Source: an uncultured bacterium (GTDB taxonomy: Bacteria; Patescibacteriota; Minisyncoccia; UBA6257; GWB1-50-10). Taken from it: a DNA stretch of 64,000 bases. Numbering within the stretch: position 1 is the stretch's first letter; every line of letters starts with the position of its first letter. The DNA lies in NCBI GenBank assembly GCA_963768835.1, contig CAVYJB010000001.1, positions 88,420 through 152,419 on the forward strand, given 5' to 3'. Made by a program: the position numbers and the translations under genes. The notes beneath the pieces are model-generated. The model was not told the origin of the DNA. It was given only the letters and a program-made list of their open reading frames with translations, and made no database searches. Shown piece by piece: positions 19,731 through 63,981 of the stretch.

Positions 19731-19842
19731 ATGCCGGCGTACCCTACTTTCCCGACTCCCGAAGGAGCAAGTATCATCAGGCCTGCGCGCTTTCACTTCT
19801 CTGTTCGGAATGGGAAGAGGTGGTACACGCGCCGGTTAAACA
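19731..19842 (-). rRNA. rrf: 5S rRNA
   Basis: Minus-strand match to 5S consensus: GCGCTTTCACTTCTCTGTTCGGAATGGGAAGAGGTGG (loop C/E region) and helix I ends; ends approximate. Confidence 0.7.
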
Positions 19843-19875
19843 CCAGCAAACCGAAACCGTGGTGCGGAACTACCA

Positions 19876-23000
<3,125 letters not shown>

Positions 23001-58550: not shown

Positions 58551-59768
58551 TCAGGAACTCGGATTGACGGACCCCCACCGTGAGGAAACAAGGAGGAGCA
58601 CCAGACCGACGACGACGACCCCGCCCGCCGCAAGGAATGCCGTTCCCGGACCCGCCGTCTGCCAAAGGTATCCCCCGCCGATACCCGCGACGAGCGCCCC
58701 CAGGCCGACCGCCGCGTTTAATAGCCCCATCGCTCCGCCGCGGAGCTCGTCGGTCGAAAGCTGCGCCGCGAGCGAACGCTGGACGCCATCGGTGAGCGCG
58801 GGGAAAAGCCCCAAGAGGAGAAAACCAATGGCGAGCGCCCAGGATGAATGCGCGGCAAAGAGAAAGTAGTAGCCAGCAAGGAGAATCCCGTAGCCCGCGC
58901 AGATGACCGTCCGGGCACCGAGCCGATCGCTCATCTTCCCCGCCGACATCGAGAACCCCGCGTAGGAGAGGTTGTAGATCATGTAGAAGAGCGGAATGTC
59001 CGCGAGGATGAGCCCTAGGGATTGCGTCGTGAGGAGGAGAACCGCGATGGGAAGGCTGCCCACCGAGAGCACGAATACCGCGAGCGCGTACAGCTTGAAC
59101 GCGGGCGAGAGGCGCGCGAACGCAGCTCGAAGGGTCGCTCGTTCCCTCTTCACTGTGAGGGCGATGTCGGAGATAAAGAAAAGCGTGAGAATCGTGATGA
59201 TGCCCACGACGAATGCTGTGAGGAACACGGTGTTGAAGTGGAGCGGGTAGGCCCGCAGGATGAGATACGCGACCAGAGGGCCGAGGATGGAACCCAGGGT
59301 ATCCATCGCCCGGTGATATCCGAACGACCGCCCAAGCTCCTCCTTCGGGGTCGAGAGGGAGATGATGGCGTCCCGCGGCGAGTCCCGGAAACCCTTTCCC
59401 ACCCTATCGAGCACGCGGAGCCCCAAGGCGCCACCCACTGCGGTGACGAACACATAGAAGGGCCTCGTGAGGACCGAGAGCACGTACCCGAAAACCACGA
59501 GCGGCTTCCGTCGTTGGAATCGGTCTGAAAGGTTTCCGGAGTAGATCTTGAAGAGGTTTGAGAGGCCTTCCGCGACGCCGTCCACGAGACCAAGTGACTC
59601 GGCCCCGGCTTTCAAAACCGTCGTGAAGAACGCAGGGAACACCGAAAACACCATCTCCGAGGAGAAATCATTAAAGAGGCTCGTGAGCCCGAGGAAAAAG
59701 ATGTTCTTCGGAAGCCCTAGGATTCGTGGGCCTGTGCGCCGCGTTGTGTCAGATTCGGGCTGTGGCAT
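58551..59768 (-). CDS. MFS transporter
   Basis: 12 predicted TM helices, MFS motif-like GxLxDRxGxR region (SDRLGART). Confidence 0.75.
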   Translation of the reverse strand: MPQPESDTTRRTGPRILGLPKNIFFLGLTSLFNDFSSEMVFSVFPAFFTTVLKAGAESLGLVDGVAEGLSNLFKIYSGNLSDRFQRRKPLVVFGYVLSVLTRPFYVFVTAVGGALGLRVLDRVGKGFRDSPRDAIISLSTPKEELGRSFGYHRAMDTLGSILGPLVAYLILRAYPLHFNTVFLTAFVVGIITILTLFFISDIALTVKRERATLRAAFARLSPAFKLYALAVFVLSVGSLPIAVLLLTTQSLGLILADIPLFYMIYNLSYAGFSMSAGKMSDRLGARTVICAGYGILLAGYYFLFAAHSSWALAIGFLLLGLFPALTDGVQRSLAAQLSTDELRGGAMGLLNAAVGLGALVAGIGGGYLWQTAGPGTAFLAAGGVVVVGLVLLLVSSRWGSVNPSS

Positions 59769-59787: not shown

Positions 59788-60228
59788 CTAAATTTTAGCA
59801 CCGACGGTCTCTCGGCTAAAGCTTTTGGCGGCGGAAATCCCGATGACCGCGCCGATAATGGCTCCGGCGACGAAATCAGAGAACCAGTGGATGCTCATGG
59901 ACACCCCAAGCCCGACATACAGCGCGTAGAGGATTGCCACGACCTTCAGAAGCTTATGCTTGGGATAAAGAGCGATGAGAGCAAACATGGAGGCGAACGC
60001 CACCATGGCGTGCGAGGAAGGCCATCCCCAAAATACGCCGCCGCGAAGAAGCCCGAACCGAAATCCGTTGCTGATATCAACAGTCGAGGCCGTGAGCATG
60101 CTGGGCGGCTGGATTCGTCCGGTGAAGGGACCTTCTTGATAGGCAGGGAAATTAATACTTCTCCAAAAGTTCGTTGAGTTTAGCACAGAATTCGGGCGTA
60201 AAGCGTGAATCTTCAAAGGTATCATCAA
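59788..60228 (-). pseudogene. PAP2-family phosphatase C-terminal fragment (possibly truncated gene)
   Basis: PAP2 motifs 2 and 3 present (PSSH; SMSIHWFSD) but motif 1 KX6RP and N-terminal TMs absent; 5' end overlaps AT-rich NERD gene. Confidence 0.4.
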
Positions 60229-60934
60229 AGTACCTCTTTATGCCATCCGCACTAGTGATTATATATACCTCAGGCTTTTCAATCTTTTCTATTTTATATC
60301 GATCACCAACCATAAGAATCGCGCCTTTCACTTTAATTTGGCTAAAATCGTTTTTCATGAGCCACTCTTCAAGTGCCTCGTTGTGATACGCAGCTTCTCT
60401 AACGGGGCTTTTCCATCTTCCCAGCTGGCAATAGCAGGTATTACCATCGGGGTATCTTGAGATCTTATACACCTCGCTTTCGATGAAACGGTATTCGCCA
60501 GATAGGTTCTTGACCTCAATGGTGATAATTCCCTTCGGCCCAACGACAATGGCGTCAATATCAAATCTCTTACCGGGAATCTTAAAGTTTCTGTATAACC
60601 GATAGGAGCTACCAAGCATTTCGAGAAGTCGCTTAAACGCCTTTTCCTCTCCTAGGTTCCCTTTCAAGGCATTTTGAAGGTTGTACTTCGCCCTATCTAA
60701 CAAGTCGTCGAGCTTATGAAGTAACTTAGTTTCACCCAGTGTTATCAGGACACCCAAGAGTATGCCTATGGCACCTATCGTTGCTTTTTCATCGAGCCAG
60801 AGTTTCCGAGAGACAATATCTCTAATGCTCCAATTAAGCGCGAGGTAAGATAAGAAACCGAGCGCAAGTATAGTAACGATAATTATAAGTGCGTTCTTTA
60901 TTATTTGTCTTTTAGAAAACGATAATTTGAGCAT
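60152..60934 (-). CDS. NERD (nuclease-related domain) membrane protein on AT-rich island
   Basis: Two N-terminal TMs then NERD-like region GNLGEEKAFKRLLEML...RFDIDAIVVGPKGIITIEVKNLSG; local GC far below window average. Confidence 0.6.
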   Translation of the reverse strand: MLKLSFSKRQIIKNALIIIVTILALGFLSYLALNWSIRDIVSRKLWLDEKATIGAIGILLGVLITLGETKLLHKLDDLLDRAKYNLQNALKGNLGEEKAFKRLLEMLGSSYRLYRNFKIPGKRFDIDAIVVGPKGIITIEVKNLSGEYRFIESEVYKISRYPDGNTCYCQLGRWKSPVREAAYHNEALEEWLMKNDFSQIKVKGAILMVGDRYKIEKIEKPEVYIITSADGIKRYFDDTFEDSRFTPEFCAKLNELLEKY

Positions 60935-61129
60935 TGATGTTTAGCTCGATAGGTCTTTTATACTTGCGTGCCTTGGATTCAAACTCATCTAAATGCTAGA
61001 CCGCCTGTCGGAAATGACAAGCGGTTTAGCACATTTGTAGGCCTCTCGCATGGGGTACCCACACAGGCGAGACACCGTAAGGACCCCTTAAGGATGGCCG
61101 AGGAGGTCCGACGACGCAAGGGGGTCGGG

Positions 61130-61590
61130 GCCTGAAATGTAACATGTAACAAATGTAACACGACGTGCAAGGTTCGGGGAACGTCGCTTTTTCGGGAGAT
61201 TACCGACTAAGGCACATAGATCAAGGATTCTTTGATGGTCGAAGTGTAACATGGCAAATGCAACACCCGGAGGACTGTTTCCGCCTGAGCGAAAGTTAAC
61301 AAAGTTTACACAGGAAGAGACGTTAACTTTTATGCGTTAACTTTCTGAATCTTCGATGAAAATGGCACAAATGGCACTCCACGGTGTGACTTTATTGTGT
61401 GCCATTCTGGTGTGCCAAAGAGCCGCAAACCGGACAAAGCGGACACAAAAGGACGCAGTCCGGACGTGTCCCATTTGAACAGGGACGTGTCTCATTCCCT
61501 AAAATGGATGCCTGTAAAATAAGGCTTTTCTATGCAAATGAGACAAATGAGACACTTTTAGGGGGTGTTCCGATCGTGTCTCATTTTTCA
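61130..61590. repeat. noncoding region with at least nine different short direct-repeat doublets and inverted repeats
   Basis: GTAACA x3; GGCAAATGCAACA; GTTAACAAAGTTTACA; CGTTAACTTT x2; ATGGCAC x2; GTGTGCCA x2; CGGACA x3; GGACGTGTC x2; AATGAGACA x2; 11-bp inverted repeat AAATGAGACAC/GTGTCTCATTT next to RT stop. Confidence 0.6.
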
Positions 61591-62550
61591 GCCTACCAAT
61601 CCAATCCGTTTTCTGATGGCATAGGTGTTCCCGTGTTGCAGGAGCCCTCGGTAGGAGGATGCGGTCTCCGGTTTCGGGCGTCTCCCCATGCGCGTGAGCA
61701 CTCTTCGCTTCGTCGCGGTGCGAAGCACCCGATGATCCGGAAAGTGCACCCAGCCCAGGAAATCGACGCCGGAGGCGAGCGTGAGGATGGAAATCTTGTC
61801 GGGGTGAAGATCGAGCTTGAGCCGTTCGAAGAGGAATGCTCGGATCCTGGGGAGGATCTGCTCGAGTCGCGCGCGATCGTCCGAGAAAATCACGAAGTCG
61901 TCGGCGTAGCGGATGTAGTGGTGGGCGCGGAGGCGGTGCTTCGCGAATCGGTCGAACTCATTCATGTACACGTTCACGAAGAGCTGGGAGGTGAGATTGC
62001 CGAGGGGCAGGCCGATGCCAGGCCGCGTCGAGGAGAAGCTGCTGACAACGGCGCGGGCAAGCCATACAGTTCCTTCGCCCAGGTCCCGCGCAAGAATTCC
62101 GAGAAGCGCTTCGTGGTCAACGCTCGCGAAGAATTTCCGGATGTCGCACTTCAGAATCCAGCAGGTCTTCGTGTTGTTCTTGCTGGCCTGCCAACCGAAG
62201 CGCCGGAAGCGATCCAGAGCTTTATGTGTCCCCTTTCCGACCCGGCACGAAAAGGAATCGGCGATGAACTTCCTGTCAAAATGGGGGTAGAGCACGCGGT
62301 AAACGGCATGATGAAGGAGGCGGTCGCGGACGGTGGCTTTATGGATGTTCCGCGGCTTCGGATCGGAAATATTGAACGCTTGATAGCCGCCGTGCCGGTA
62401 GGTACGATGGAGAAGGTCGCGATGCAGAGAGAAGATGTGATCCACCAGGCGCAGGGAGAACTCCGCGACATCCGGTTTGTATCGCTTCCCGGGCAGGAAT
62501 TCTTGCCACGCCTGAAGTAAGTTCTCGACACTCGCGATTTTTTCAAACAT
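61588..62550 (-). CDS. diversity-generating retroelement reverse transcriptase
   Basis: RT motifs incl. YADDFVIF and DGR-type LGNLTSQ (I/LGxxxSQ); 320 aa from ATG 62550; cognate TR/VR pair present. Confidence 0.8.
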   Translation of the reverse strand: MFEKIASVENLLQAWQEFLPGKRYKPDVAEFSLRLVDHIFSLHRDLLHRTYRHGGYQAFNISDPKPRNIHKATVRDRLLHHAVYRVLYPHFDRKFIADSFSCRVGKGTHKALDRFRRFGWQASKNNTKTCWILKCDIRKFFASVDHEALLGILARDLGEGTVWLARAVVSSFSSTRPGIGLPLGNLTSQLFVNVYMNEFDRFAKHRLRAHHYIRYADDFVIFSDDRARLEQILPRIRAFLFERLKLDLHPDKISILTLASGVDFLGWVHFPDHRVLRTATKRRVLTRMGRRPKPETASSYRGLLQHGNTYAIRKRIGLVG

Positions 62551-62572
62551 ATGGATACGGAGCAACCCGGTA

Positions 62573-62583
62573 CCCCCCCCCCC
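62573..62583. repeat. C11 homopolymer between divergent RT and avd starts
   Basis: Eleven consecutive C on plus strand (G11 on RT coding strand), 23 nt upstream of RT ATG 62550 and 12 nt before avd TTG 62595; lies inside the longer listed RT ORF (encodes GGGG). Confidence 0.9.
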
Positions 62584-62594
62584 GACGGAACCAA

Positions 62595-62942
62595 TTGCCG
62601 GTAGTTCAAAAATTCGTCTCGGCATACAAGCTCTGGCACGAAATCGTTCCGGACTTTCCTAAAACTTCGCGCTATACCTTGGGCTCGAGAATCGACTCCC
62701 TTTTTCTGGAGACGATCGAACTCATTTTCTCCGCCGCCTCCGTCACCCCCGCGGAGAGGTTCGCAAGAGTGGGAATCGCGGCAGCGAAGCTGGATGCCTT
62801 GAAATTCCTTCTTCAAATTTCCTGGGAGATAAAAGCGCTGGATACCAAGAAATACATCCTGCTCTCCGAAAAACTCGACGAGGCGGGGAGGATGCTCGGC
62901 GGATGGTTACGGCAACTCTCGGAGAAAACTTCCCCGCGGTAG
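62595..62942 (+). CDS. avd: Avd-like four-helix-bundle accessory protein of DGR
   Basis: 115 aa; pattern KLWHEIVPDFPKTSRYTLGSRIDSLFLETIEL...DEAGRMLGGWLRQL resembles Avd/TIGR02436 four-helix bundle; TTG start as listed; opposite strand to RT and TR. Confidence 0.6.
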   Translation: MPVVQKFVSAYKLWHEIVPDFPKTSRYTLGSRIDSLFLETIELIFSAASVTPAERFARVGIAAAKLDALKFLLQISWEIKALDTKKYILLSEKLDEAGRMLGGWLRQLSEKTSPR

Positions 62943-62961
62943 CGCGGGGAAGGAAGCGGTA

Positions 62962-63076
62962 AGCTTCGAGAGAGCACGCAGTTGCCGTCGTTCCACCTGT
63001 TGTCATCCAGGTCGTTCGCATTCAGGTTCCACTCGCGGTCGTTCGAGTTCCAGTTCACGTTCACCGCAACCACGCG
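62962..63076 (-). repeat. DGR template repeat (TR), 115 bp
   Basis: 115-bp repeat of 63318-63432; all 22 mismatches occur where this copy has A on the minus (RT-sense) strand; translates as Asn (AAC)-rich pseudo-ORF VAVNVNWNSNDREWNLNANDLDDNRWNDGNCVLSRS. Confidence 0.85.
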
Positions 63077-63279: not shown

Positions 63280-63315
63280 AACACCGAGAACCCAAGAATC
63301 CGAGAATCCGAGAGG

Positions 63316-63981
63316 TCAGCTGCGAGAGAGCACGCAGCGGCCGCCGAACCACCTGTAGTCATCCAGGCCGAACGCATCCAGGCCCCACCCGCGGCCGTCC
63401 GAGGACCAGAGCACGCGCACCGCAACCACGCGCCCTTCCAACTGCACATAGAAGACGTTCGCGTAGCCGTTCATGAGGAGCGTGCCTTCTTCGCCCTTCG
63501 GTTGCTTCGTGAGCAGATCGCGGATGAGGGCCGCGAACTCTCCGGGCGTGAAGGGCTCCGGGTGTCCGAGTTCCGTGAGGATCTCGGAGTCGAGCATATA
63601 CTTCGTGAGCTTCGTCTGCGTGAGCGTGCCCTGGAACGCTTCGATGGTCTCGGGAATCAGGGGGAGCACCCACTGCTCGAAGTTGCTCCCGAGCCAGAGC
63701 TTCACAGGACCCTTCTTCCCGAAGAACGATTCCTTCGTGAAGGACTCAGTCGCTATCGCGATGCCGTCCGTGATGAGCTTCAGGGATTTCAGGGCGAGCT
63801 TCTTTGCGCCGTTCGTGCCAGCGACGATGAGTTTCGCCACTTCCTTCGCGAGACCTGTACCTGTCTTCATTCTTTCGAACATCCGTTCCTCGTTCCCCCC
63901 GAGCTTCACGACTTCCTTGTAGACTTCCGTGAAGAACTCTGCCCCGAAGAGCATGCCGCCAACCAACTTTGATTTCTGCAT
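63316..63981 (-). CDS. DGR target protein (221 aa) with C-terminal variable region
   Basis: ATG 63981 with GGAGGTG RBS; no signal peptide or TM; C-terminus ...AVRVLWSSDGRGWGLDAFGLDDYRWFGGRCVLSRS encoded by VR. Confidence 0.75.
   Translation of the reverse strand: MQKSKLVGGMLFGAEFFTEVYKEVVKLGGNEERMFERMKTGTGLAKEVAKLIVAGTNGAKKLALKSLKLITDGIAIATESFTKESFFGKKGPVKLWLGSNFEQWVLPLIPETIEAFQGTLTQTKLTKYMLDSEILTELGHPEPFTPGEFAALIRDLLTKQPKGEEGTLLMNGYANVFYVQLEGRVVAVRVLWSSDGRGWGLDAFGLDDYRWFGGRCVLSRS
63318..63432 (-). repeat. DGR variable repeat (VR), 115 bp, at 3' end of target gene
   Basis: 93/115 identical to TR; differences only at TR adenine positions; begins at target stop codon. Confidence 0.85.

Follow-up and report, generated by a model that had tools for sequence, protein, structure and literature searches.

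A hypermutable simple repeat in the 5′ coding part of avd probably acts as a slipped-strand ON/OFF switch of Avd, and hence of DGR mutagenesis. We give this reading, drawn from sequence comparison, a probability of roughly 0.6. The repeat was encountered as an 11-nt homopolymer in the window (the whole 64 kb stretch of DNA that was analysed), and it recurs, in one form or another, at the same position in most related DGR loci.

In our assessment, little is known of how DGRs are restrained and naturally regulated. It is costly to keep mutating a useful binding protein, and the Patescibacteria DGR clade is one of the largest DGR reservoirs. A conserved slippery repeat in avd would offer a simple and testable form of DGR control for this clade. 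The wider proposal, that the avd repeat gates targeted hypermutation across the whole clade and that populations mix cells with the diversifier ON and OFF, stands in our judgment at even odds.

The DGR cassette of the window

The element in the window is a complete DGR, with a TR/VR pair, a DGR-type reverse transcriptase (RT) and Avd (Table 1). The mismatches between TR and VR fall at TR adenines in 22 of 24 cases and lead to any base, and the bAvd match spans residues 4-107 of the window Avd. The avd gene is antisense to TR and RT and lies between them, which is architecture B3, defined by Wu et al. 2018 (PMC5758913) as TR-(avd)-RT and making up 90% of the CPR elements in their set. The window and all 154 of the relatives described below arrange TR, inverted avd and RT in the same order and orientation as the CPR/Patescibacteria B3 DGRs (PMC5758913).

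Table 1. Coordinates of the DGR features in the window
Feature	Position	Strand	Basis
DGR reverse transcriptase (RT), 320 aa, MFEKI start	61588..62550	-	Pfam RVT_1 1.4e-23; motif LGNLTSQ; homologues begin MFE
CATATG palindrome: RT start codon (62550..62548, -) abuts the proposed avd ATG (62551..62553, +)	62548..62553		sequence
Leader ORF from ATG 62551 in the C11 state, MDTEQPGTPPPDGTNCR then stop	62551..62604	+	translation; proposed true avd start
C11 simple-sequence repeat, proposed switch	62573..62583	+	read directly; G6-G14 or dinucleotide repeats at the homologous position
avd body, 115 codons from the conserved Leu codon TTG 62595 to the stop	62595..62942	+	Pfam bAvd 9.6e-15
GC-rich hairpin with 10-bp stem and T-run, directly 3′ of TR, overlapping the avd stop	62929..62952	-	terminator scan
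Template repeat (TR), 122-nt direct repeat with VR	62955..63076	-
Variable repeat (VR), 3′ end of the target gene	63311..63432	-
DGR target gene, 221 aa, no Pfam match	63316..63981	-	ORF list; VR covers the C-terminus

The closest RT homologues are Patescibacteria RTs with the same surrounding cassette, and those with a named source come from Paceibacteria, Brennerbacteria and similar groups. The window itself is a segment of a Patescibacteria (CPR) chromosome that carries 23S and 5S rRNA genes and tRNAs. The 23S rRNA match (19897-22999, -) is 3103 nt long against a model of 2925 positions, suggesting one or more insertions; it is followed by the 5S gene at 19732-19847, and a 16S gene was not detected anywhere in the 64 kb. 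On the 3′ side of RT are a protein with a NERD (nuclease-related) domain and an MFS transporter (60152-60934 and 58551-59768, both -), with no convincing ORF between the NERD gene and the RT stop (61000-61590).

The hairpin at 62929-62952 looks like an intrinsic terminator of the TR RNA. A hairpin with a T-run occurs near the 3′ end of avd in 79 of 121 relatives, as found by a simple search run without a control. If the hairpin does terminate transcription, the TR RNA would neither be co-transcribed with RT nor continue antisense through avd.

The repeat in the window and in related loci

The run of 11 C residues at 62573-62583 of the forward strand, G11 on the RT strand, was read directly and is confirmed as real. 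The original prediction had placed an 11-nt homopolymer in a 44-bp gap, and this is correct, as the interval 62551-62594 between the RT ATG at 62550 (-) and the TTG at 62595 measures 44 bp. The run is the longest homopolymer of the 64 kb window, in which the next longest G/C run has 7 residues. C-runs of 5, 6 and 7 residues number 51, 9 and 2, respectively, and G/C run counts in the window drop about 5-fold with each added base. By extrapolation, fewer than about 0.01 runs of at least 11 residues are expected in the window, and C11 is thus far beyond expectation. It also exceeds the length, about 7 residues or more, from which a G/C run counts as an unstable repeat.

Related loci were sampled from species-representative genomes (80 loci) and from metagenomes (80 loci), together with contigs of several exact RT proteins; 154 of them hold both genes, with RTs 59-82% identical. 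The avd gene is antisense to RT and immediately upstream of it in 154/154 loci. At the position homologous to C11, 134 of the 154 carry a run of G6-G14 on the RT strand (mode G10, mostly 9-11 nt), a further 13 carry a dinucleotide repeat, (GT)7-18, (CT)8-10 or (GA)6-10, and 7 carry neither. By comparison, 573 kb of DNA flanking the same loci contains one other G/C run of at least 8 nt and not a single dinucleotide repeat of at least 5 units. The nearest RT neighbours of the dinucleotide loci are poly-G loci, and this scatter indicates that the repeat has been replaced several times independently. What is conserved at the site, as judged from these loci, is some simple repeat and not one particular sequence.

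A structural role of the DNA was considered and set aside. A G-quadruplex or i-motif is unlikely, because a single run of 6-14 G cannot supply four G-tracts and because other repeat types substitute for it. A common non-B structure is unlikely too, given repeats that are homopurine in one locus (poly-G, GA/CT) and alternating purine/pyrimidine in another (GT).

Length variation on identical backgrounds

Twenty contigs from different groundwater samples (L169-L188) share 1360 nt of identical flanking sequence and differ in the repeat, which is G7 in 4 contigs, G8 in 11 and G9 in 5. These contigs came from two assembly pipelines. An apparent second variable site 3′ of RT in the same set turned out to be a difference between gene callers, as the next 330 nt are also identical except for one SNP. 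In the 90%-identity cluster of RT P0069, the only differences among the N-terminal variants are the count of Gly codons or the frame used before the run, and these variants imply the lengths G6 and G11 as well. A second lineage, of the Liptonbacteria type, has G9 in 3 contigs, G10 in 2 and G11 in 2, again with identical flanks. In this lineage, ATG-AA-C10 opens an in-frame Avd of 120 aa with a Pfam bAvd match, and C9 and C11 do not. Length therefore varies among otherwise identical genomes in two related lineages. Furthermore, three more diverged pairs, with identities of 99.8%, 97.4% and 96.3%, show no indel apart from the repeat.

Other sets of identical contigs show one length throughout, G10 in L083-L088 and G10 again in L024, L100 and L101, which means that consensus lengths can be stable. 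All homopolymer lengths taken from short-read assemblies carry some error. For the window, exact look-ups of its Avd, of both RT versions and of P0001 (the 345-aa ORF) returned no encoding contig, and a DNA pattern of the tract flanks with a variable gap had no match in the JGI metagenomes.

The repeat might also lack a function, being a product of assembly or sequencing error or a site of frequent neutral mutation. Runs of 9-11 identical bases are prone to error, many identical contigs share identical lengths, and the L192 scaffold breaks into a run of N's that abuts the G-run, about 10 nt upstream of the tract; such a break fits read heterogeneity or poor read quality. Against an artefact or neutral hotspot stands the presence of a repeat at the same position in 147 of the 154 loci, from varied assemblers, projects and candidate phyla, and its near absence elsewhere in the 573 kb. 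Different repeat types occupy the site, and several lengths occur within the JGI and within the MEGAHIT assemblies. A repeat devoid of function is, in our estimate, very improbable.

In the L169-L188 set, the avd of every contig (e.g., L177) is shifted by -1 in mid-gene at a T7 run (AAGTTTTTTTCCAAATAG), about 250 nt 3′ of the tract, and the VR region differs between samples despite this frameshift. Either avd is here a recent pseudogene with standing VR diversity, or frameshifts at homopolymers are bypassed. Given the frameshift, the tract variation in this set may be neutral.

The start of RT

The original prediction noted a longer RT reading frame in which slippage would frameshift the enzyme. 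The first half of this statement stands: the ORF list contains an RT frame of 345 aa from 62625 in which the run is read as GGGG. The second half does not, since homologues place the RT start at 62550. The closest homologues (P0003, P0004, P0005, P0008 and P0010; 69-78% identity) begin with MFE, which corresponds to 62550 in the window. In most other relatives, RT starts with MKIQLSH, seven codons earlier and still 3′ of the run, from which a stop codon often separates it. These starts put the run outside the RT coding sequence. The 345-aa ORF was accordingly rejected as the true RT, as homologues start downstream of the run and the extension is an open antisense frame of avd.

In most relatives MKIQLSH precedes the residues x-F-E. 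The lineage of the window has lost the ATG of MKIQLSH; the homologous stretch reads TGLLRIH, and RT begins at the following Met. In several relatives (L024, L041, L046 and L052), the stretch from the G-run to the conserved His of RT is free of ATG, GTG and TTG codons.

Gene callers often miss or split avd and extend the RT ORF through the G-run, as in L001/L002, L084-L088 and L169-L188, and the extended calls are proteins of 345-380 aa with GGG stretches. The annotation of many such genomes therefore has mis-started or missing avd genes and wrongly lengthened RT ORFs. Because of these extensions, database clusters of RT hold N-terminal variants that encode the tract length, and polymorphism of the tract can be mined from them without reads.

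The start of avd

The codon that had been taken as the avd start of the window, TTG 62595, corresponds in relatives to TTG, CTG, TTA, CTT, CTA, CTC or, in a few, an Ile, Val or Met codon, followed by a conserved P(I/V)(I/L)QKL. Such codon variety marks a conserved hydrophobic residue as opposed to a start codon. Read in the avd frame, the repeat codes for prolines in every case and is followed by 3-4 codons, which in the closest relatives of the window read RRNQ, RRNE or RRND; the differences between the window and relatives after the repeat are mostly synonymous (CGA/CGG, AAC/AAT, TTG/CTG/CTA). An in-frame stop is often found directly 5′ of the repeat.

The possible starts were classified in 135 non-redundant repeat-bearing loci. 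An in-frame ATG lies 5′ of the repeat in 38 and an in-frame GTG or TTG in 18, and in 23 the codon at the Leu position is the sole possible start. The remaining 56 have no ATG, GTG or TTG in the avd frame from the upstream stop to the Leu position. The avd body (about 116 codons) is intact in 125 of the 125 relatives free of contig-end cuts, including 51/51 uncut loci of the start-less class, where the next in-frame start comes 2-70 codons downstream and is not conserved.

When the frame is disregarded, nearly every locus has a candidate start. In 134 of the 135 loci, the 60 nt on the 5′ side of the repeat contain an ATG that is open into it, compared with 53% at control positions drawn at random antisense to the body of RT. 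Most loci derive this ATG from the codon for the conserved His near the N-terminus of RT, read as its reverse complement. That His codon is CAT in 89 cases and CAC in 2, compared with 54.6% CAT in RT bodies (binomial P=3e-21, indicative only, as the loci are related). The back-to-back CATATG arrangement of RT and avd starts is found in L001 as well as in the window. The ATG 5′ of the repeat is, from this pattern, apparently under selection.

Loci without a repeat provide the most telling single comparison. In 6 of 6 non-redundant cases their avd has an ATG in frame and upstream of the Leu position, compared with 38/135 with a repeat (Fisher p=7e-4); in 3 of the 6 the His codon supplies this ATG, about 20 codons before the Leu. 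Longer tracts go with a lower in-frame fraction, which is 100% without a repeat, 50% up to G7 and 27% from G8 upwards. CP066687.1 (L083), a complete genome, has avd in the ON frame, with an annotated bAvd of 135 aa that overlaps the RT start. Taken together, the tract most likely lies inside the 5′ coding part of avd, with the start in the window at ATG 62551.

In silico translation from ATG 62551 gives an Avd of 129 aa with C9 and of 130 aa with C12, both running into LPVVQKF, and peptides of only 17-37 aa with C10, C11 and C13. As C11 is out of frame with this ATG, the assembled genome is in the OFF frame. The sequences before the proposed ATG, read by eye, show no Shine-Dalgarno-like motif. 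The Leu codon of the window is a TTG with GGA a few bases upstream, and Avd might be made there from TTG 62595 as a fallback start, whatever the tract length.

An alternative role for the repeat is that of a spacer in a promoter or 5′-UTR, where its length would tune the initiation of transcription or translation of RT, avd or both. The run is suitably placed upstream of the RT ATG, at a distance of 10-30 nt in relatives and of 22 nt in the window, and in some loci it sits about 10 nt from that ATG and could mimic a ribosome-binding site. The terminator-like hairpin after TR also suggests that RT has its own promoter between the hairpin and its start; RT would probably need one nearby, which leaves some room for a spacer role. 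However, hexamers resembling -35 or -10 elements are not conserved at any fixed spacing to the tract (no position exceeds 0.6 bit over 60 nt on each side in 135 loci). A scan found no promoter-like site at the window tract either, a weak test because Patescibacteria promoters and their consensus are poorly known. Nor does a spacer explain the start-less avd frames, the 89:2 ratio of CAT to CAC, the open ATG of 134/135 loci or the in-frame starts of the repeat-less loci. We regard a spacer role as quite unlikely, and the suggestion in the original prediction that the tract alters promoter spacing is weakened.

A probable frame switch in avd

The proposed switch would operate as follows. The ribosome would start avd at the ATG that precedes the repeat (ATG 62551 in the window) and read a short leader, the repeat as prolines and 3-4 further codons (RRNQ) before it reaches Leu 62595 and with it the Avd body. 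As the DNA is replicated, slipped-strand mispairing would alter the length of the repeat and thus bring the body into frame with the ATG or take it out of frame, C11 being the OFF state of the window and C9 or C12 the ON state. In part of the cells, the repeat would then turn DGR hypermutation on or off in a heritable and reversible manner. Wu et al. 2018 (PMC5758913), citing work on the Bordetella phage, state that association of Avd with RT is required for mutagenic retrohoming. If this requirement of the Bordetella phage system applies, a switch in avd would gate the activity of the DGR. From the pattern of frames and lengths we infer that the ATG is the functional start, that the repeat switches often and in both directions, and that Avd and DGR activity are lost in OFF frames.

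The distribution of frames admits a second interpretation. With a repeat, the upstream ATG is in frame with avd in 30 loci, at -1 in 52 and at +1 in 44. These near-random values fit rapid switching, and they fit equally well models in which the frame of the DNA is irrelevant. In one such model, slippage of the RNA polymerase, or a shift of the ribosome on the CCC-C proline codons, yields a fixed fraction of Avd from any genomic length; the tract would set a low dose of Avd instead of being a heritable switch, and the process could coexist with switching in the DNA. The spread of 30/52/44 is about that expected without selection on frame, the tracts are mostly 9-11 nt long, and avd bodies are intact where the consensus tract is out of frame, all of which agree with recoding. 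The population that tolerates the T7 frameshift within avd while its VR differs between samples agrees with it too.

Recoding has more difficulty with the 13 loci that use dinucleotide repeats in place of a homopolymer. Dinucleotide repeats are classic substrates of DNA slippage and, to our knowledge, not of transcriptional slippage or of shifting on proline codons. In addition, the length polymorphism is seen directly in the DNA, and the loci do not share one frame offset, which programmed +1 or -1 frameshifting would require. A programmed ribosomal frameshift with a fixed offset was rejected for this reason, since the offsets 0, -1 and +1 all occur (30, 52 and 44 loci). Moreover, established transcriptional slippage takes place mostly at A/T runs (general background; see also PMC1088944). 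We consider recoding at the level of RNA or ribosome unlikely as the explanation of the repeat, and the slipped-strand switch in avd remains the preferred reading. The general idea of the original prediction, that slippage toggles the DGR, is upheld by the positional conservation, the length differences and the replacement by dinucleotides; the two mechanisms it named, a frameshift of RT and a change of promoter spacing, are less well supported.

Novelty and implications

The original prediction put such a switch forward as not known to have been described for DGRs, and we likewise found no paper linking DGRs with phase variation. No paper within the literature search connects DGRs, or the B3 layout, with phase variation by repeats; the main CPR DGR paper, Paul et al. 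2017, was outside this search. In Wu et al. 2018 (PMC5758913) the words homopolymer and start codon are absent, and the repeat and the problem of the avd start are not described. Each of the three elements, DGRs, the B3 layout and phase variation through repeats, is known, and their combination is new as far as the literature search shows.

If the switch is real, the ON fraction of a population would be set by slippage and selection, and the system would amount to bet-hedging at two levels, with a contingency locus in control of a diversity generator. The ON/OFF state of the DGR could then be read from metagenomic reads and compared with VR diversity. It would also extend the biology of contingency loci from pathogens to ultra-small environmental bacteria.

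Relation to known systems

The closest parallel is with the contingency loci of Neisseria, Haemophilus, Campylobacter and Helicobacter pylori. As proposed for avd, their phase variation is translational: a poly-C/G run of at least 7 nt or a dinucleotide repeat such as CT/AG lies a few codons after the ATG, changes of 1-2 nt shift the frame of the gene body, and many genomes are in the OFF frame. In both, length differs between otherwise identical sequences. They differ in that their hosts are mucosal pathogens, whereas here the host is a free-living or episymbiotic groundwater Patescibacteria, and in that they gate genes for surface antigens or restriction-modification, whereas here the gated gene would encode the accessory factor of a mutagenic retroelement. 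Furthermore, contingency repeats are strain-specific, while the avd repeat is conserved across a very deep clade.

Repeats also act as promoter spacers, as in the TA repeats of H. influenzae hifA/hifB, N. meningitidis opc and porA, and the poly-C of B. pertussis fim3. These switches resemble the avd repeat in that the repeat can lie between divergent genes and is commonly poly-C/G. They set the spacing of the -35/-10 elements or of activator sites, however, whereas the flanks of the avd repeat are without conserved promoter elements, and the evidence from reading frames puts the repeat inside avd. Programmed slippage, or rescue of homopolymer frameshifts, is known from transposases of IS elements, Thermus dnaX and the poly-A tracts of endosymbionts. 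There too, a homopolymer separates an upstream start from an out-of-frame downstream body, but the runs are A/T with a fixed offset, in contrast to the G/C runs, occasional dinucleotides and all three offsets seen here.

Finally, repeat-controlled mutator switches are reported in the form of tandem-repeat variation in mutL and mutS of Salmonella and others. As proposed for avd, a hypermutable repeat gates the capacity to generate mutations. The mutL/mutS switches alter mismatch repair of the whole genome, whereas the avd repeat would control targeted hypermutation of a single variable region.
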